Origin: a virus
Virus genome (UHGV): UHGV-2204358
Length of the DNA: 14,334 nt
Reading direction: 5' to 3' (one strand)
The translations under genes were made by a program, and so were the position numbers. Numbering within the stretch: the stretch's first letter is position 1; each line of letters starts with the position of its first letter. Below are positions 1-14,334 of the stretch, piece after piece. The notes below the pieces were generated by a model. That model searched no databases. It was not told the DNA's origin and saw only the letters and a list, made by a program, of their open reading frames with translations.

Positions 1-441
1 CTGGAAAGGCTGGGCCATACTCCTCCGGCAGAAGCAGAAAAAGCTTATTATGCTTCCATCGGAAACGATGATCTGGCAGCCTGAGTTCACAGATAAAATA
101 CTCTCCAGGAAACCCGGGGCGGTTCAGTGCTGGGAAGTCTGCGAATTAGAGAAAGCGTAAGCAAGATTGGGGGGAAAATCGGTAAACGTTTGGGCCATGA
201 AAAACAATGGTCACTACACGACCTTAGAAGAACGCTATCTACTCATCTAAGTGATCTCGGTGTTGAATTTTATGTAGTAGAACAACTGTTAGGCCATGCG
301 CTACCTGGCGTGGCGGGTGTTTACAACCGGAGTAAGTTTATGGCTAAAAAACTGGATGCTCTGGAACTCTGGACTACATATCTCAATAGCATCGCAGGTG
401 CTGATTCAAAAGTGACAATCCTCAAACAAAAGGCTGGTTAA
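1..441 (+). pseudogene. P4-type tyrosine integrase, C-terminal catalytic region only (ORF 127..441 from GTG); upstream reading frame interrupted, so probably a truncated or frameshifted integrase remnant
   Basis: Translation 127..441 shows the tyrosine-recombinase C-terminal signature (HDLRRT ... LLGHALPGVAGVYNRSKF). In-frame stops at 82-84 and 94-96 prevent upstream extension. Frame 2 upstream contains LSRKPG, which may be the displaced preceding integrase segment. Confidence 0.6.
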
Positions 442-442
442 C

Positions 443-673
443 ATGAAAAAAATGGCAATTGTTGATAAAAAGGGTCTGGAGTACATTCCTAACATCGATC
501 GTATGATCCGTGAGAAAGAATGTCGGGAGCTAACCACTCTTGCGAACAGCACACGCTGGAAGCTGGAGAAGGAAGGAAAATTTCCTAAGCGGATCAAGAT
601 TGGTTCCACTGCTGTTGCATATCGTCTTTCAGAAGTGCAGGCATGGATTCGAGGTGAGTGGGAAACGACTTAA
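443..673 (+). CDS. alpA: AlpA-family phage transcriptional regulator / excisionase-like HTH protein
   Basis: 76 aa ORF starting 2 nt after the integrase stop. Motif ELTTLANSTRWKLEKEGKFPKRIKIGSTAVAYRLSEVQAWI matches the AlpA (Phage_AlpA) helix-turn-helix pattern. Confidence 0.75.
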   Translation: MKKMAIVDKKGLEYIPNIDRMIREKECRELTTLANSTRWKLEKEGKFPKRIKIGSTAVAYRLSEVQAWIRGEWETT

Positions 674-690
674 CTATTAGGTGGGGCATT

Positions 691-1512
691 GTGGCTATAT
701 TTCATTATACAGATCTTTTTGGTTTGAAAGGTATATTAGACTCTAATTCTTTATGGGCTACAAATATATATTTCTTAAATGATAAAGAGGAGTCTAACCA
801 TGGATGTGAATGTTTTCGAAATACAATTAAAATAGTTGATGATAATATCATCCCAAAAGATAAGAAAACTATTTTGCTCAAGTCTCTTGACATGTATGAG
901 AAAGGGAAGTTACAAAAAGAAAAAGGGATTGATAAACATGTTTATAGCATATCTTTTTGTAAAGAAAACGATAAGTTAAGTCAGTGGAGAGGTTACGGAA
1001 ATAAACAGGGCGTTTGCATTGAATTTGATGCGGATGAACTTGTGAGTTTTTGTCAAAATATTTATTTAAATTGTGTTGCACATGATGTTATATATTCAAA
1101 TAATGACGATATTACAAAGATGAGTAAGGAGTTGGATGAGTTTTTTTCTTGTAATGGTATTAACATTAAAGAAATGAATGATCATTTTGTAACAATGGTC
1201 TCTACGTATCAATTTATATCTAAATATATCCCATTTTTTAAACATCCTAGTTTTATCGAAGAAAATGAATTTAGACTGGTGTTTACTCCGTGGATACAAA
1301 TGCCAGATGTGAAATTTAGAATAAATAATAATGGTATCATCCCTTATATCATTATTAATAATAAAGATAATAGAAAGTTACCAATTAAAAGCATTACAAT
1401 TGGCCCGACAAGCGATTATGATTTTATTGAGGCTGGTATAAAAATGTTTTTGGATTCAAGAGGATTTGGTTCTGTGGAAATTAAATCCTCATCAATTCCA
1501 TTCAGGGGGTAA
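691..1512 (+). CDS. DUF2971-like protein in AT-rich cargo segment; candidate accessory or anti-phage gene
   Basis: Long ORF (track 658..1512). Start most likely GTG 691, with AGGTGG 6 nt upstream at 679-684. N-terminal FHYT...GILDSNSLWATNIYFLNDKEE, mid SISFCKENDKLSQWRGYGNKQGVCIEFD and FKHPSFIEENEFRLVF resemble DUF2971 signatures recalled from memory. Sequence is visibly AT-rich, suggesting foreign origin. Confidence 0.6.
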   Translation: MAIFHYTDLFGLKGILDSNSLWATNIYFLNDKEESNHGCECFRNTIKIVDDNIIPKDKKTILLKSLDMYEKGKLQKEKGIDKHVYSISFCKENDKLSQWRGYGNKQGVCIEFDADELVSFCQNIYLNCVAHDVIYSNNDDITKMSKELDEFFSCNGINIKEMNDHFVTMVSTYQFISKYIPFFKHPSFIEENEFRLVFTPWIQMPDVKFRINNNGIIPYIIINNKDNRKLPIKSITIGPTSDYDFIEAGIKMFLDSRGFGSVEIKSSSIPFRG

Positions 1513-1557
1513 GGATTAACACTCTTAATCTATGATATTATAAAAATGGTAGATAAA

Positions 1558-1577
1558 GGCGACCAGAATTGGTCGCC
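1558..1577. terminator. Perfect 8-bp inverted repeat (GGCGACCA GAAT TGGTCGCC) between convergent genes; probable bidirectional or minus-strand intrinsic terminator
   Basis: Stem-loop seen directly. On the minus strand it is followed by a T-rich run (TTTATCTACCATTTTTATAAT). It lies 46 nt after the plus-strand stop at 1512 and 67 nt after the minus-strand stop at 1644. Confidence 0.45.
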
Positions 1578-2027: not shown

Positions 2028-2219
2028 TTATCCTTTTGGTTCAATACCGCGCCGTAGCAGCTCTTTGCGCCCTAATTCTTTAAGCCAGTTGGCTAGGCTT
2101 ATGCCGTCGCTCTGCGCTTCTTTGTCGAATTGCTCTTTTAGCTCTGGAGAAATTCGCATTCTGAATTGTGGAGATTGCCCATCACCCTTAGGACTTTTAT
2201 CGCGTTTGATCGTTGACAA
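2028..2219 (-). CDS. Arc/Mnt-like ribbon-helix-helix DNA-binding protein; candidate repressor or antitoxin
   Basis: C-terminal translation SPQFRMRISPELKEQFDKEAQSDGISLANWLKELGRKELLRRGIEPKG matches the Arc-type RHH pattern (PQFnlRlp.elke....A...g.S.N). Start is uncertain: TTG at 2219 with AGGTGG upstream, or ATG at 2159. The long 2028..2342 ORF in the track is probably an over-extension. Confidence 0.55.
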   Translation of the reverse strand: MSTIKRDKSPKGDGQSPQFRMRISPELKEQFDKEAQSDGISLANWLKELGRKELLRRGIEPKG

Positions 2220-2265
2220 GTGACCACCTATTGAATTAGCCTTTTCATTGTTAGGTGACCACCTT
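2220..2265. promoter_or_regulatory. Divergent promoter/operator region with two direct copies of GTGACCACCT (2220-2229 and 2256-2265)
   Basis: Repeats seen directly in the intergenic region between the minus-strand RHH gene and the plus-strand replication operon. A TTGACA hexamer lies at 2213-2218. Confidence 0.3.
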
Positions 2266-2358
2266 AACACGGAGGCACTTAAAAAAGCAAAGCCCGAAGG
2301 TGCTAGGAACACCAACGGGCTTCTAACCACCAACGATAGCAACAGTATCGAGGTAGCT

Positions 2359-4887: not shown

Positions 4888-4900
4888 ACTTATGGAATAA

Positions 4901-5123
4901 CTGTTCACCACTGTTCACCCTGTCATAAATATCTTTTATATCAGTATATTATAGGGTGAACAGTTATTTATGAACTGTTCACCAAACTATTCACTGTTCA
5001 CCTTTTTGATTGTTTATTGAGCTTCAAGGGTGAACAGTGGTGAACAGTTGGTGAATAGTTTTTGTGAAACTGTTTACCCATTAACATTATGAATTAAAAG
5101 AGAAAATATCAAAAGGTGAACAG
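4901..5123. repeat. Iteron-type replication origin: at least 9 copies of 9-bp CTGTTCACC / GGTGAACAG in both orientations with AT-rich spacers
   Basis: CTGTTCACC at 4901, 4911, 4975, 4994. GGTGAACAG at 4955, 5029, 5039, 5115. Variants GGTGAATAG at 5050 and CTGTTTACC at 5070. Tandem pairs at 10-bp phasing. AT-rich stretch 4921-4954. Sits directly downstream of the primase-helicase gene. Confidence 0.7.
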
Positions 5124-5174
5124 ATGAAGGGTTAAAACGCAAAAATTTTAATTTACTGCTGTGAGATAAAGCCT

Positions 5175-7870: not shown

Positions 7871-8795
7871 TGAAATTAGGGCCCGCTCTGGCTGGCGGGT
7901 CCTTTCCGGCGATCCAGAACGTTACGGGGCGTCAGGCGCGCAGTTTTTCTCTATTTATGGAAATTTTCCGGTTTAAGGCTTTTCCGTTCTTCTTCGCCGT
8001 AACTTTATGTTTTTATTTAAAATACCCCCTGAAAAGAAAGGAAATGACAGGCGCTGAAAACGGGCTTTTTGGCCTCTGCCGTTTCCTTTCTCTGATTTTG
8101 TTGCTGTTTGTCACGGCCTATCGCCAGAAAAAACTCTCATGCTTGCGTTGAAATCAGGCTCTACACTAAAGTAGTCGATAACGCGCCACTGGCTTCACTT
8201 TATGGTCGTGGCCTACTTCTGCACTATCGCAACAGCCTTACGAGTCCTGCTGGTAAGCTGTTGAGTAAGCAGAATACGGATTACAGGGCATCCTATGCGT
8301 ATTGTGGCGGATCGAACACAACCGCTCAGGTGAAACCCGTTTCGTTACTATTATAGGAAAATCTTCATACCCAACTTGCTTGATAACTTCTTCTGGTTGT
8401 TTTAACCATGTAGAGATGATATTTCCCTGAAAAATTGCTTTCCCTCTGACTAGATGCGCATACCACATTTTGTCTTCGACATAGAACCGCGCAGAAATGA
8501 TTACTCCACAGATACGGTTCTTTCGTCAATTCATTATGGAATGGGCTCAAAAGGGAGAGCTCAACAATAAAGTTCTGGTAGGATAATTGTATGCTTACAA
8601 TTGTAATGAAAGGAGAGTTAGAGCCTGGTGTGATTCTGTGTGTAAAATTTTAGCAAATTACGTTTAATTAAGTGTCGTAACACACCATGCCTGTCAGATA
8701 TTACGCTTATCATAGAGTGTATGATATTGCTTTTCTAAACAATAAGCTGTTATATTTTATGGGTATTGTGTTTAATTTTTAATGACGGCTCTAAC

Positions 8796-9731
8796 ATGAC
8801 CCCTGATGCAGTTTTGATTGCTAAAGCAATACTAATGTTGAAAGCAGATGTTGATTATACAAAAGATTATGTATTCCCTATTGCATTATCTTTTTTATCG
8901 GCGCTTATGGGAGGCTTAACTGCTTATTGCATCAATAATAGGCAGGAGAAGATTAAAATAGAAACGGAGAAATTTAATTCTGCTAATACGCTTATGATGG
9001 TTTCTTTTCAGATGATAAATACACTTGTGGGAATTAAAAGTAGTTATATTGGTTTGAGATCTAGAAATCCAATATTAAGAGCGCTGGCAATAAATGAATT
9101 TTTATTTAACGCCGGGGAGGTAAATTTCGATATTAGCCGTCTTTCATTTATAAAAAAGATACCCACAGCTAATAAATCTCTATTTGAGAGGTTTGTTTTT
9201 TTTATTAAGTACAAGATACTAAAACATGAACTTATTATGCCGTCAGATGAAGAAATTGGAAAGTCATGGAGGAATATTGCTCGAATTGATGCTTTTTTGT
9301 TTAATTATAATTTTGTTTTGAAAAGTTTAATTGTCAGGAATCAGCTTGATTCAGATTTAAAGAAACGTTTGTCTAATATTGCCAGTAAAGACAAGCCAGT
9401 GTTTGAAATTAAATTGGATGAAATAAAGAAAGAAATTGGTGCTAGTGAGTTGTCAAAATATATTGATTTGACAGAAAGTATAGTGGCGTTGATCGATTAT
9501 CTCATAAGGGAAATTGATTCATTTATTATGGAGTTCCCGAAGGTAGCGGAAAGTAATATTGAGTTATCTAAGGTGAATAAAGCTAAATTATCAACAATTG
9601 TTCTCAATAAGCCAGCATATTTGGCTGCATTGATTCCAATTCCACAACCTGACTTTGAATTAGTATCTTTACTAGTGGGTATGAGCCCAGAAGAAGCAAA
9701 GCAAAGATATTCGTATTCTGGTTGGCACTAG
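8796..9731 (+). CDS. Hypothetical AT-rich protein with a predicted N-terminal transmembrane helix; function unknown
   Basis: Long ORF (track 8766..9731 from TTG; ATG at 8796 preferred). Hydrophobic segment VFPIALSFLSALMGGLTAYCI. Strongly AT-rich, unlike the flanking DNA. No recognisable domain. Confidence 0.6.
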   Translation: MTPDAVLIAKAILMLKADVDYTKDYVFPIALSFLSALMGGLTAYCINNRQEKIKIETEKFNSANTLMMVSFQMINTLVGIKSSYIGLRSRNPILRALAINEFLFNAGEVNFDISRLSFIKKIPTANKSLFERFVFFIKYKILKHELIMPSDEEIGKSWRNIARIDAFLFNYNFVLKSLIVRNQLDSDLKKRLSNIASKDKPVFEIKLDEIKKEIGASELSKYIDLTESIVALIDYLIREIDSFIMEFPKVAESNIELSKVNKAKLSTIVLNKPAYLAALIPIPQPDFELVSLLVGMSPEEAKQRYSYSGWH

Positions 9732-9860
9732 TAGATATAGTGACATACCTTTGCGAAGCGCTGTATTGCTACGTGTATTGCTTTTTAGCTGTATTTTGAT
9801 AGAGAGAGCCATTTATTTCATTAAAAATCATTCAGTTCCTTTCATATTTGACTCATGTAA

Positions 9861-10649
9861 CCCAAGCATGAGGTGAATCCGCAGATGACCCTGCGTCGCC
9901 TGCCGGATGAAGATCCGCAGAATCTGGCGGACCCGGCTTACCGCCGCCGTCGCATCATCATGCAGAACATGCGTGACGAAGAGCTGGCCATTGCTCAGGT
10001 CGAAGAGATGCAGGCAGTTTCTGCCGTGCTTAAGGGCAAATACACCATGACCGGTGAAGCCTTCGATCCGGTTGAGGTGGATATGGGCCGCAGTGAGGAG
10101 AATAACATCACGCAGTCCGGCGGCACGGAGTGGAGCAAGCGTGACAAGTCCACGTATGACCCGACCGACGATATCGAAGCCTACGCGCTGAACGCCAGCG
10201 GTGTGGTGAATATCATCGTGTTCGATCCGAAAGGCTGGGCGCTGTTCCGTTCCTTCAAAGCCGTCAAGGAGAAGCTGGATACCCGTCGCGGCTCTAATTC
10301 CGAGCTGGAGACAGCGGTAAAAGACCTGGGCGAAGCGGTGTCCTATAAGGGAATGTATGGCGATACGGCGATCGTCGTGTATTCCGGACAGTACGTGGAA
10401 AACGACGTCAAAAAGAACTTCCTGCCGGACAACACGATGGTGCTGGGGAACACTCAGGCACGCGGTCTGCGCACCTATGGCTGCATTCAGGATGCGGACG
10501 CACAGCGCGAAGGTATTAACGCCTCTGCCCGCTACCCGAAAAACTGGGTGACCACCGGCGATCCGGCGCGTGAGTTCACCATGATTCAGTCAGCACCGCT
10601 GATGCTGCTGGCTGACCCTGATGCGTTCGTGTCCGTACAACTGGCGTAA
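9861..10649 (+). pseudogene. E: Lambda major capsid protein E, 5'-truncated (lacks about the first 80 codons)
   Basis: Translation from 9861 (PKHEVNPQMTLRRLPDEDPQ ... FVSVQLA) is near-identical to lambda gpE from about residue 80 to the C-terminus. A TAA stop at 9858-9860 and unrelated AT-rich DNA lie immediately upstream. The only in-frame start is GTG 9873. Confidence 0.8.
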
Positions 10650-10651
10650 TC

Positions 10652-10678
10652 ATGGCCCTTCGGGGCCATTTTCTCTCT
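10652..10678 (+). terminator. Stem-loop ATGGCCC-TTCG-GGGCCAT followed by TTTCTCTCT between E and FI; probable partial terminator or attenuating hairpin
   Basis: 7-bp perfect stem with a TTCG tetraloop and a downstream T-rich tract, 3 nt after the E stop. Confidence 0.4.
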
Positions 10679-10690
10679 GTGGAGGAGTCC

Positions 10691-11089
10691 ATGACGAAAG
10701 ATGAACTGATTGCCCGTCTCCGGTCGCTGGGTGAACAACTGAACCGTGATGTCAGCCTGACGGGGACGAAAGAAGAACTGGCGCTCCGTGTGGCAGAGCT
10801 GGAAGAGGAGCTTGATGACACGGATGAAACTGCCGGTCAGGACACCCCTCTCAGCCGGGAAAATGTGCTGACCGGACATGAAAATGAGGTGGGATCAGCG
10901 CAGCCGGATACCGTGATTCTGGATACGTCTGAACTGGTCACGGTCGTGGCACTGGTGAAGCTGCATACTGATGCACTTCACGCCACGCGGGATGAACCTG
11001 TGGCATTTGTGCTGCCGGGAACGGCGTTTCGTGTCTCTGCCGGTGTGGCAGCCGAAATGACAGAACGTGGCCTGGCCAGAATGCAATAA
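10691..11089 (+). CDS. FI: Lambda FI (DNA-packaging / head assembly protein)
   Basis: MTKDELIARLRSLGEQLNRDVSLTGTKEELALRVAELEEELDD... matches lambda gpFI. GGAGGAG RBS before ATG 10691. The track ORF starting at 10652 is over-extended. Confidence 0.85.
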   Translation: MTKDELIARLRSLGEQLNRDVSLTGTKEELALRVAELEEELDDTDETAGQDTPLSRENVLTGHENEVGSAQPDTVILDTSELVTVVALVKLHTDALHATRDEPVAFVLPGTAFRVSAGVAAEMTERGLARMQ

Positions 11090-11100
11090 CGGGAGGCACT

Positions 11101-11454
11101 GTGGCTGATTTCGATAACCTGTTCGATGCTGCCATTGCCCGCGCCGATGAAACGATACGCGGGTACATGGGAACGTCAGCCACCATGACATCCGGTGAGC
11201 AGTCAGGTGCGGTGATACGTGGTGTTTTTGATGACCCTGAAAATATCAGCTATGCCGGACAGGGCGTGCGCGTTGAAGGCTCCAGCCCGTCCCTGTTTGT
11301 CCGGACTGATGATGTGCGGCAACTGCGGCGTGGAGACACGCTGACCATCGGTGAGGAAAACTTCTGGATAGACCGGGTTTCGCCGGATGATGGCGGAAGC
11401 TGTCATCTCTGGCTTGGGCGGGGCGTACCGCCTGCCGTTAACCGTCGCCGCTGA
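11101..11454 (+). CDS. FII: Lambda FII (head-tail joining protein)
   Basis: MADFDNLFDAAIARADETIRGYMGTSATMTSGEQSGAVIRGVFDD... matches lambda gpFII. GTG start with GGGAGG RBS. Confidence 0.85.
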   Translation: MADFDNLFDAAIARADETIRGYMGTSATMTSGEQSGAVIRGVFDDPENISYAGQGVRVEGSSPSLFVRTDDVRQLRRGDTLTIGEENFWIDRVSPDDGGSCHLWLGRGVPPAVNRRR

Positions 11455-11465
11455 AAGGGGGATGT

Positions 11466-12044
11466 ATGGCCATAAAAGGTCTTGAGCAGGCCGTTGAAAA
11501 CCTCAGCCGTATCAGCAAAACGGCGGTGCCCGGTGCCGCCGCAATGGCCATTAACCGCGTTGCTTCATCCGCGATATCGCAGTCGGCGTCACAGGTTGCC
11601 CGTGAGACAAAGGTACGCCGGAAACTGGTAAAGGAAAGGGCCAGGCTGAAAAGGGCCACGGTCAAAAATCCGCAGGCCAGAATCAAAGTTAACCGGGGGG
11701 ATTTGCCCGTAATCAAGCTGGGTAACGCGCGGATTGTCCTGTCCCGACGCAGGCGTCGTAAAAAGGGGCAGCGTTCAGCCCTGAAAGGTGGCGGCAGCGT
11801 GCTTGTGGTGGGAAACCGTCGTATTCCCGGCGCGTTTATTCAGCAACTGAAAAATGGCCGGTGGCATGTCATGCAGCGTGTGGCCGGGAAAAACCGTTAC
11901 CCCATTGATGTAGTGAAAATCCCGATGGCGGTGCCGCTGACCACGGCGTTTAAACAAAATATTGAGCGGATACGGCGTGAACGTCTTCCGAAAGAGCTGG
12001 GCTATGCGCTGCAGCATCAACTGAGGATGGTAATAAAGCGATGA
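11466..12044 (+). CDS. Z: Lambda Z (tail completion protein)
   Basis: MAIKGLEQAVENLSRISKTAVPGAAAMAINRVASSAISQSASQVARETKV... matches lambda gpZ. Confidence 0.85.
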   Translation: MAIKGLEQAVENLSRISKTAVPGAAAMAINRVASSAISQSASQVARETKVRRKLVKERARLKRATVKNPQARIKVNRGDLPVIKLGNARIVLSRRRRRKKGQRSALKGGGSVLVVGNRRIPGAFIQQLKNGRWHVMQRVAGKNRYPIDVVKIPMAVPLTTAFKQNIERIRRERLPKELGYALQHQLRMVIKR

Positions 12045-12436
12045 AACATACTGAACTCCGTGCAGCCGTACTGGATGCACTGGAGAAGCATGACACCGGG
12101 GCGACGTTTTTTGATGGTCGCCCCGCTGTTTTTGATGAGGCGGATTTTCCGGCAGTTGCCGTTTATCTCACCGGCGCTGAATACACGGGCGAAGAGCTGG
12201 ACAGCGATACCTGGCAGGCGGAGCTGCATATCGAAGTTTTCCTGCCTGCTCAGGTGCCGGATTCAGAGCTGGATGCGTGGATGGAGTCCCGGATTTATCC
12301 GGTGATGAGTGATATCCCGGCACTGTCAGATTTGATCACCAGTATGGTGGTCAGTGGCTATGACTACCGGCGCGACGATGATGCGGGCCTGTGGAGTTCA
12401 GCCGATATGACTTATGTCATTACCTATGAAATGTGA
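12041..12436 (+). CDS. U: Lambda U (tail terminator protein)
   Basis: [54 protein letters not shown]... matches lambda gpU. Start overlaps the Z stop (ATGA). Confidence 0.85.
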
Positions 12437-12443
12437 GGACGCT

Positions 12444-13184
12444 ATGCCTGTACCAAATCCTACAATGCCGGTGAAAGGTGCCGGGACCACCCTGTGGGTT
12501 TATAAGGGGAGCGGTGACCCTTATGCGAATCCGCTTTCAGACGTTGACTGGTCGCGTCTGGCAAAAGTTAAAGACCTGACGCCCGGCGAACTGACCGCTG
12601 AGTCCTATGACGACAGCTATCTCGATGATGAAGATGCAGACTGGACTGCGACCGGGCAGGGGCAGAAATCTGCCGGAGATACCAGCTTCACGCTGGCGTG
12701 GATGCCCGGAGAGCAGGGGCAGCAGGCGCTGCTGGCGTGGTTTAATGAAGGCGATACCCGTGCCTATAAAATCCGCTTCCCGAACGGCACGGTCGATGTG
12801 TTCCGTGGCTGGGTCAGCAGTATCGGTAAGGCGGTGACGGCGAAGGAAGTGATCACCCGCACGGTGAAAGTCACCAATGTGGGCCGTCCGTCGATGGCAG
12901 AAGATCGCAGCACGGTAACAGCGGCAACCGGCATGACCGTGACGCCTGCCAGCACCTCGGTGGTGAAAGGGCAGAGCACCACGCTGACCGTGGCCTTCCA
13001 GCCGGAGGGCGTAACCGACAAGAGCTTTCGTGCGGTGTCTGCGGATAAAACAAAAGCCACCGTGTCGGTCAGTGGTATGACCATCACCGTGAACGGCGTT
13101 GCTGCAGGCAAGGTCAACATTCCGGTTGTATCCGGTAATGGTGAACTTGCTGCGGTTGCAGAAATCACCGTCACCGACAGTTAA
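12444..13184 (+). CDS. V: Lambda V (major tail tube protein with C-terminal Ig-like domain)
   Basis: [50 protein letters not shown]... matches lambda gpV. GAGGA RBS before ATG 12444. The track start at 12414 is over-extended. Confidence 0.85.
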
Positions 13185-13199
13185 TCCGGAGAGTCAGCG

Positions 13200-13622
13200 A
13201 TGTTCCTGAAAACCGAATCATTTGAACATAACGGCGTGACCGTCACGCTTTCTGAACTGTCAGCCCTGCAGCGTATTGAGCATCTTGCCTGGTTGAAAGA
13301 GCAGGAAAAAAAGGCTGAATCCAGTGGCAACCTGCAGGTGTCTGTAGAGGCGCTTATCAGAGGCGGGGCGTTTCTGGTGGCGATGTCTCTGTGGCATAAC
13401 CATCCACAGAAGACAAAGCTGCCGTCCATGAATGAAGCCATTACGCAGATTGAGCAGGAAGTGCTTACCACCTGGCCCACGGAGGCAATTGCTCAGGCTG
13501 AAAACGTGGTGTTACGTCTGTCCGGAATGTCTGAGTTTGTGGTGAATAATGCCCCTGAACAGGCAGAGGACGCCGGGCCTGCAGAGCCTGTTTCTGCGGG
13601 AAAGTGTTCGACGGTGAGCTGA
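13200..13622 (+). CDS. G: Lambda G (tail assembly chaperone)
   Basis: MFLKTESFEHNGVTVTLSELSALQRIEHLAWLKEQEKKAESSGN ... SAGKCSTVS matches lambda gpG. Confidence 0.85.
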   Translation: MFLKTESFEHNGVTVTLSELSALQRIEHLAWLKEQEKKAESSGNLQVSVEALIRGGAFLVAMSLWHNHPQKTKLPSMNEAITQIEQEVLTTWPTEAIAQAENVVLRLSGMSEFVVNNAPEQAEDAGPAEPVSAGKCSTVS

Positions 13623-14038
13623 GTTTTGCCCTGAAACTGGCGCGTGAGATGGGGCGACCCGACTGGCGCGCCATGCTTGCCGGGATGTCATCCACGGAGT
13701 ATGCCGACTGGCACCGCTTTTACAGTACCCATTATTTTCATGATGTTCTGCTGGATATGCACTTTTCCGGGCTGACGTACACCGTACTCAGCCTGTTTTT
13801 CAGCGATCCGGATATGCATCCGCTGGATTTCAGTCTGCTGAACCGGCGCGAGGCTGACGAAGAGCCTGAAGATGATGTGCTGATGCAGAAAGCGGCAGGG
13901 CTTGCCGGAGGCGTTCGTTTTGGCCCGGACGGGAATGAAGTTATCCCTACTTCCCCGGATGTGGCGGACATGACGGAGGATGACGTAATGCTGATGACAG
14001 TATCAGAAGGGATCGCAGGAGGAGTCCGGTATGGCTGA
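13200..14038 (+). CDS. GT: Lambda G-T tail assembly chaperone fusion made by programmed -1 ribosomal frameshift (T portion 13604..14038 in the -1 frame)
   Basis: Slippery heptamer G GGA AAG at 13598-13604 near the end of G. The -1 frame continues as VFDGELSFALKLAREMGRPDWRAMLAGMSS..., matching lambda gpT, and ends at TGA 14036-14038. Confidence 0.7.
13598..13604 (+). other. Programmed -1 frameshift slippery site GGGAAAG
   Basis: Heptamer present in the G frame (codons gcG GGA AAG), exactly where lambda G-T frameshifting occurs. Confidence 0.7.
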
Positions 14039-14334
14039 ACCGGTAGGCGATCTGGTCGTTGATTTGAGTCTGGATGCGGCCAGATTTGACGAGCAGATGG
14101 CCAGAGTCAGGCGTCATTTTTCCGGTACGGAAAGTGATGCGAAAAAAACAGCGGCAGTCGTTGAACAGTCGCTGAGCCGACAGGCGCTGGCTGCACAGAA
14201 AGCGGGGATTTCCGTCGGGCAGTATAAAGCCGCCATGCGTATGCTGCCTGCACAGTTCACCGACGTGGCCACGCAGCTTGCAGGCGGGCAAAGTCCGTGG
14301 CTGATCCTGCTGCAACAGGGTGGTCAGGTTAAGG
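14031..14334 (+). CDS. H: Lambda H tape measure protein, N-terminal part (continues beyond window end)
   Basis: ATG 14031. Translation MAEPVGDLVVDLSLDAARFDEQMARVRRHFSGTESDAKKTAAVVEQSLSRQALAAQKAGISVGQYKAAMRMLPAQFTDVATQLAGGQSPWLILLQQGGQVK matches the lambda gpH N-terminus. No stop before the window end. Confidence 0.85.
   Translation, partial: MAEPVGDLVVDLSLDAARFDEQMARVRRHFSGTESDAKKTAAVVEQSLSRQALAAQKAGISVGQYKAAMRMLPAQFTDVATQLAGGQSPWLILLQQGGQVK

Follow-up and report, generated by a model that had tools for sequence, protein, structure and literature searches.

The question raised by this stretch of DNA, 14,334 nucleotides of the virus genome UHGV-2204358 that we call the window, is what a single, strongly AT-rich gene is doing directly behind the integrase and alpA genes of a phage satellite. 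The satellite is a helper-embedded phage-inducible chromosomal island (PICI) of Escherichia coli, and the gene, called here the DUF2971 gene after the Pfam family of its product, occupies a slot in which related satellites carry other cargo. An earlier note on this DNA, made from the sequence letters, had put the gene forward, with reservations, as candidate defence cargo, and this cautious reading is supported, with corrections, by the DUF2971 match and by the variability of the locus. Taking the evidence together, we consider it moderately probable that the gene encodes an anti-phage abortive-infection effector resembling the lactococcal protein Aristaios and carried as satellite cargo.

The DUF2971-like motifs that the earlier note had read from the translation proved genuine, in that Pfam PF11185 (DUF2971) matched the protein with 47 bits (E 6.8e-12), over its curated gathering cut-off of 22, residues 98-196 spanning profile positions 1-89 of 89. 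In an alignment of 52 homologues, which are 29-96% identical, the residues H5-Y6-T7, W22-A23-T24, N30-D31, E34, L96, W99, G101-Y102, K184, F188, E191, E193 and R195 are invariant. Y102 sits in the stretch LSQWRGYG, while E191 and E193 belong to F-x-EE-x-E-x-R; these are the strict tyrosine of motif II and the ExE of motif III that mark the family (PMC12522546). The conserved blocks coincide with predicted core strands, and between them are two hypervariable helical inserts, at about residues 35-82 and 136-183, in which the mean frequency of the commonest residue per column is 0.32-0.33, against 0.63-0.72 in the catalytic core segments. In published bioinformatic work the DUF2971 family is classed as an ADP-ribosyltransferase (ART) of the H-Y-E clade, similar to DarT, AbiGi and Tox-ART-HYD1 and with large helical inserts between the core strands (PMC12522546).

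The predicted structure points the same way. An AlphaFold2 model with a predicted local distance difference score (pLDDT) of 87.9 and a predicted template modelling score (pTM) of 0.85 shows what appears to be the ART fold of the H-Y-E clade, with H5 placed within a predicted strand at 2-8 and E193 opening another at 193-200, and a sub-threshold Pfam match aligns residues 4-22 with Tox-ART-HYD1. Judging from this model, the DUF2971 protein very probably has an ART fold. The top five Foldseek matches were four DarT structures and one Tpt1 (probability 0.75-0.93, with weak E-values), so that the nearest structural relatives would seem to be the DarT DNA ADP-ribosyltransferases. Sequence searches of the PDB, run with the single protein and with a profile of the 52 sequences, gave chance matches only (septin, ribosomal protein S10 and a 31-residue stretch of GABA-A receptors), and for this reason the link to DarT rests on the fold comparison together with the published profile-profile work. 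NCBIfam returned no match for the protein or for seven neighbouring open reading frames (ORFs), and a viral structure library gave weak-score matches to uncharacterised phage proteins only. From the nearest structural neighbours in the model, a nucleic-acid target is a reasonable, if unproven, supposition.

It could also be argued that the protein is an inactive ART-fold binder serving as a regulator or decoy, or else a secreted virulence effector, given that its fold matches active ARTs only moderately and that a minority of DUF2971 proteins (about 18%) were predicted effectors in a Legionella survey (PMC12522546). We find this extremely improbable in view of the invariance of H5, Y102 and E191/E193, and of the genomic surroundings, which are those of a phage satellite and not of a secretion system; moreover, the first core strand starts the protein directly, leaving an N-terminus without any signal-peptide-like segment.

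Among known defence systems, the one whose working the E. coli protein would most resemble is Aristaios, a 316-aa DUF2971 protein encoded on the Lactococcus plasmid pUCCL641 and shown experimentally to be a single-gene abortive-infection system that shuts off phage transcription as well as phage protein production (Grafakou et al. 2024, PMC11381338). The comparison is drawn from the shared Pfam domain, the size and the published description: at 316 and 273 aa the two proteins are of similar length, both have a predicted ART fold over most of the protein, and both are encoded as single-gene units on a mobile element, the DUF2971 gene of the window being, like Aristaios, a stand-alone gene without a conserved partner. 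They differ in the phylum of the host and in the carrier, a plasmid in Lactococcus versus a PICI satellite in E. coli. With the H-Y-E-clade classification (PMC12522546) and the abortive infection by Aristaios (PMC11381338) both on record, the earlier description of the gene product as having no assigned function is outdated.

DarTG, an established anti-phage system that ADP-ribosylates DNA (PMC12522546, PMC11381338), is the other obvious comparison. DarT (PDB 7OMV, 7YK3, 7OMU and 8BAQ) shares an H-Y-E-type ART core with the DUF2971 protein, but the two are only 7-13% identical and DarT does not have the two large helical inserts. The Pfam and PADLOC scans of the protein detected no DarT family and the PDB profile search no DarT, and no macrodomain antitoxin (DarG) is adjacent, the cassette consisting of one gene with alpA and a convergent SWIM zinc-finger gene as its neighbours. 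Membership in DarTG was rejected on these two grounds, the missing DarT sequence match and the missing DarG.

As the earlier note had stated, the gene stands right after int and alpA, with its start 18 nt past the alpA stop codon, and comparison with other strains bears out the proposed variability of the site. The int-alpA segment (127-690) was found in 179 of 5426 complete E. coli genomes and the DUF2971 gene in 36 of those 179, and the genomic context is the same in all 30 records among the matches listed. Elsewhere the cargo varies, at least six different occupants of the slot being present among nine satellites inspected. They include a CAP12/PycTIR-type TIR protein (PADLOC candidate PDC-S35, E 7e-67), an AbiC-like protein with a putAbiC domain, a 178-aa protein with weak, sub-cut-off Pfam matches to membrane-protein families, a 164-aa unknown protein beside an IS66 insertion, and a 265-aa protein of no family that we call X. 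Immune systems have been reported from the 5' or 3' end of PICIs, and the locus has the features of a 5' PICI hotspot, namely a site directly after int-alpA and differing cargo in homologous elements.

When the window is aligned by BLASTN with eight related satellites (these and other compared loci are given L numbers), the limits of the cassette become visible. In all satellites without the gene, the left break falls at 661/662 (664 in one), within the last alpA codons, and homology returns either at 1555, where the SWIM gene is kept (L005, L006), or at 2407-2417 (L002, L003, L007). The cassette encloses one ORF, the genes downstream differ among homologous loci, and no conserved partner gene was found. 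No direct or inverted repeats flank the cassette (662-1554); a transposon-like cassette was therefore rejected, and the exchange probably takes place through recombination in the conserved flanks. The idea that the SWIM gene might serve as partner or antitoxin was rejected, since it is kept beside other cargo in L005 and L006 and is missing next to the DUF2971 homologues of other genera; it belongs to a variant of the satellite backbone.

Family X (254-265 aa; L005 4532-5329, L014 5212-5976, L017 5207-5974, L024 4205-4969), the members of which are mutually 56-71% identical, is matched by nothing in Pfam or PADLOC and only weakly by phrog_2611. It is the sole occupant after alpA in some E. coli satellites and lies between alpA and the DUF2971 gene in Enterobacter, and it may be either another cargo gene or an occasional partner.

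The same position recurs in other genera. All six of the chromosomal homologues with at least 43% identity that were examined are found in the order int-alpA-(X)-DUF2971 within helper-embedded PICIs of Buttiauxella and Enterobacter, and a homologue on a Klebsiella plasmid likewise follows two alpA genes. The Enterobacter satellites share 91.5% (Int) and 96% (AlpA) identity with those of E. coli but only 43-47% in their DUF2971 proteins, a divergence that points to an exchange of alleles or to rapid evolution. More distant relatives are found in other surroundings, several of which speak for a defence role. IncI-gamma/K1 and many other enterobacterial plasmids carry a ~40%-identical DUF2971 gene, with an Abi_C-type gene ('abortive infection family') and one for DUF3800 directly behind it (L009 7001-8565); 559 plasmid records match, 411 of them from Escherichia. 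A Pseudomonas relative adjoins an operon of the cyclic-oligonucleotide-based anti-phage signalling system (CBASS), and another distant relative is situated among toxin-antitoxin genes in a mobile region. We also noted a 41%-identical homologue on a metagenomic contig (L026 5001-5801), flanked by the tail genes S and V in a P2-like prophage, as if it had been inserted in the late genes.

The ORF itself is intact and ends with a TAA at 1510-1512. Its longest form in the ORF listing begins at an upstream GTG at 658 (658-1512, plus strand, 284 aa), but the GTG at 691 appears the more likely start, because it has AGGTGGGG spaced 4-5 nt upstream and because the resulting product aligns end to end with its homologues, which are 262-280 aa long, open with M-x-I-F/Y-H-Y-T and align with it from residue 1. 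In the three annotated records checked, RefSeq chose the 691 form twice and the 658 form once.

The composition of the gene sets it apart in just the way that the earlier note had described, with a GC content of 29.2% (24.5% at third codon positions, GC3), while its neighbours lie at 44-57% (alpA 44.6%, the int remnant 44.1%, the primase gene 49.8%, the flanking prophage 56.5%; window mean 47.1%). It forms the deeper of the two lowest-GC troughs of the window, and the two troughs match in position the two variable slots of the satellite. Low GC and a patchy distribution would also suit selfish toxic cargo of an addiction type, or a mostly silent acquired gene that persists by riding on the satellite and has no anti-phage role; it may be added that the cassette is without an antitoxin gene and that the gene is split in three of its 36 E. 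coli copies, two of these loci bearing annotations of IS3-like transposases. Such a reading seems to us quite improbable when set against a ratio of nonsynonymous to synonymous divergence (dN/dS) of 0.11-0.36 between E. coli alleles, by which measure the gene is under purifying selection, against the invariance of catalytic-type residues across genera, and against the recurrence of the gene in slots where recognisable defence genes are found elsewhere. Synonymous divergence among the DUF2971 alleles is 0.06-0.17, mostly above the 0.04-0.055 of the adjacent SWIM gene.

It can be hypothesized how an Aristaios-like effector of this kind would act. The protein would be a stand-alone ART of the H-Y-E type, encoded by a one-gene cassette that a helper-embedded PICI carries in its 5' hotspot. 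Phage infection would activate it, the activated enzyme would use NAD+ to ADP-ribosylate a target that is likelier to be nucleic acid than protein, and the modification would halt phage gene expression in the infected cell. The hypervariable helical inserts could provide the sensing or regulatory surface, or an auto-inhibitory one, and our guess is that toxicity would be restrained by auto-inhibition, by low expression of 29%-GC DNA, or by expression only together with the alpA operon.

Several observations weigh against this scheme. A toxic ART without an antitoxin needs a control mechanism, and those just named are guesses. Some of the relatives are lone chromosomal genes without a defence context, one of them between metabolic genes. 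No validated PADLOC v2 system matches the protein, and its only PADLOC v2 match is a weak and partial one (E 2e-4, 19 bits) to PDC-S31, a single-gene 'phage defence candidate' (PDC) from a set of systems defined computationally; in favour of defence, on the other hand, 42 of the 52 relatives match PDC-S31 weakly, with a best E of 5e-8. Lastly, no sigma-70-like promoter is predicted between alpA and the DUF2971 gene, and the two genes are probably co-transcribed. Helper-embedded PICIs are co-oriented with the late operon of the helper, from which transcription is expected to enter int-alpA (PMC10111431). Since the gene has no predicted promoter of its own and this read-through is expected, the protein may be made mainly or only upon induction of the satellite, and such timing would suit a role in the satellite life cycle equally well.

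Under this alternative the protein would be a life-cycle or interference factor, an ART made with int and alpA in the late phase of the helper that modifies helper or host nucleic acid or protein in a way that favours the satellite, for instance by slowing helper development or packaging. The orientation shared with alpA, the short gap between the two genes, the lack of a predicted promoter and the expected late transcription through int-alpA (PMC10111431) all agree with it, as does the alpA-linked position of the six close chromosomal homologues and of the Klebsiella plasmid copy. Yet the gene is dispensable, 143 of the 179 E. coli satellites being without it and carrying unrelated genes instead (TIR, AbiC-like), its more distant relatives turn up away from satellites, in the surroundings of defence genes or mobile elements, and the only tested DUF2971 protein acts on infecting phages (PMC11381338). 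We therefore hold a life-cycle role to be unlikely, although by no means negligible. A more specific conjecture, and a distinctly unlikely one in our estimate, is that the alpA-linked clade of 273-aa DUF2971 proteins is a new type of antitoxin-less, DarT-like ART of nucleic acids, timed by helper late transcription through int-alpA; instead of defending the host in the usual sense, it would serve the satellite as a weapon that marks or blocks the DNA or RNA of helper or rival phages, with the inserts setting its specificity for target or trigger.

Much of the framework for the preferred reading, that of an Aristaios-like abortive-infection effector, is already published, including the type of satellite, the idea of a hotspot, the assignment of the fold and the part that one DUF2971 member plays in defence. 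Our literature search found no mention of DUF2971 in connection with PICIs and no test of a member from enterobacteria, and a full-text search of the paper describing the 11capE type of PICI (PMC10111431) found no DUF2971 in its main text and the word 'defense' once only. If the gene proves to be protective, DUF2971 defence would extend from Aristaios, of a Gram-positive dairy bacterium, to E. coli and its relatives, and the much better genetic tools and phage collections of E. coli would help to identify the trigger and the target. An ADP-ribosyltransferase would then join the cargo list of helper-embedded PICIs, and the 265-aa family X and a 311-aa protein from the second variable slot of the satellite would become further candidates. 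A DarT-like enzyme without a macrodomain antitoxin also poses the question of how it is kept silent. Current concepts would stay as they are; the gene is a sound candidate for a simple experiment and holds no conceptual surprise.

Table 1. Features of the window around the DUF2971 gene, the satellite and its host prophage
Feature	Position	Strand	Remarks
IS3-family insertion sequence end	1..126	+	interrupts integrase gene
Tyrosine integrase, 3' remnant	127..441	+	last 104 codons; PF00589 profile positions 108-169 only
alpA (AlpA-family regulator/excisionase)	443..673	+	PF05930, 56 bits
Exchangeable single-gene cassette, 5' accessory slot	662..1554		from last alpA codons to GC-rich hairpin; 29.3% GC
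Shine-Dalgarno-like AGGTGGGG	about 678-686	+	4-5 nt before GTG 691; read off the sequence
DUF2971 gene	691..1512	+	273 codons, intact ORF, 273-aa product
GC-rich hairpin GGCGACCA-ATTC-TGGTCGCC	1558..1577	-	T-rich tail; from terminator scan
SWIM zinc-finger gene, 118 aa	1644..2000	-	PF04434, 24 bits; phrog_13130; convergent with DUF2971 gene
Arc/HicB-like ribbon-helix-helix gene	2028..2342	-	Pfam HicB E 0.0014 (sub-cut-off); PHROG 'Arc-like repressor' E 4e-6
GGTGAACAGT iteron array	4896..5125	both orientations	at least 10 copies of GGTGAACAGT(T), dense, in AT-rich stretch just past primase gene
Second variable slot, 3' accessory region	8286..9839		34% GC; holds 311-aa gene 8796-9731 (+)
Lambdoid host prophage	9840..14334	+	3' part of split capsid gene E, then FI, FII, Z, U, V

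As to the satellite that carries the gene (Table 1), the earlier note had invoked both P4-like elements and PICIs, and only the second of these stands. None of the P4 hallmark genes psu, delta and sid was found among the Pfam matches of the main ORFs of the window, and the layout is the published one of helper-embedded PICIs (PMC10111431), so that a P4-like satellite was rejected. The element is a helper-embedded PICI at the site E:Phage_cap_E, of type 11capE (PMC10111431). In common with that type it has int-alpA and a dynamic zone, then DUF4222 and a D5-type primase (in the window behind an Icd-like gene, a name taken from RefSeq at equivalent related loci), followed by iterons and, further on, a single-stranded DNA-binding protein (SSB), its own lambda-E-type major capsid gene (E) with a decoration-protein gene (D), and a second AlpA-like gene. 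The iteron array is very likely the replication origin of the satellite. Also in common with the type, in related strains the element lies inside the lambdoid capsid gene E, co-oriented with the late genes. It differs in that the integrase of the window copy is broken by an insertion sequence (IS).

The host prophage can be recognised from its matches. From 9840 on, Phage_cap_E is matched over profile positions 94-328 only, and Packaging_FI, Minor_tail_Z and Phage_TTP_12 match as well, the prophage portion having kept the 3' two-thirds of this second major capsid gene. RefSeq annotates a split capsid gene in L001-L003, and in intact copies (MRSN346647, strain 550 and others) the satellite is found inserted into a lambdoid prophage at its major capsid gene, the 5' part of which lies just upstream of int.

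At the other end of the window, the first 127 nucleotides are 99.2% identical to L002 10093-10219, the end of an annotated IS3-family transposase gene, and an IS3-family copy carried by strain IAI39 shares 99% identity with positions 1-126/127; this segment matches thousands of E. coli records. Homology to intact satellites starts at window position 121 (BLASTN). The intact integrase is 411 aa long in L001, and the copy in the window is cut at about codon 306. With its integrase cut in this manner, the satellite copy of the window is probably immobile, being unable to excise on its own. In strain IAI39 the same integrase gene is broken by a different IS3-family interruption.

Downstream of the cassette, the hairpin looks like the terminator of the convergent SWIM/Arc-like operon and marks the right edge of the cassette, in keeping with the homology breakpoint at 1555. 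The SWIM gene also weakly matches the PADLOC candidate PDC-S62 (E 5e-5). The Arc/HicB-like gene, whose equivalent in L005 is labelled by RefSeq as a HicB-family antitoxin, is probably the satellite repressor; the SWIM gene lies downstream of it on the minus strand, and together the two genes may form a repressor module. In other satellites this module (1644-2342) is replaced by a YlcI/YnfO-family gene. A search of the whole window at the gathering thresholds of Rfam returned no RNA family.

The second variable slot lies at the 3' end of the satellite, where BLASTN homology to other satellites is lost from 8285 to 9827-9840. In other strains it holds TIR_2-DUF3298, an Abi_C/AbiJ-like gene, or a distant second DUF2971 gene, and these contents in sister satellites make the 311-aa gene of the window a candidate defence gene. 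Its product has a hydrophobic N-terminal segment and matches phrog_21267, of unassigned function, with no match in Pfam, PADLOC, NCBIfam or the PDB; it is known from only 22 clusters, of which the named ones are all from Enterobacterales. The satellite of strain WP7-S17-ESBL-04 carries two DUF2971 genes, one of the 273-aa type in its 5' slot and one of a 252-aa type in its 3' slot. The latter (L019 18704-19462, minus strand) is 22% identical to the 273-aa type over 169 columns and, while without the N-terminal HYT motif, keeps the E-x-E-x-R.

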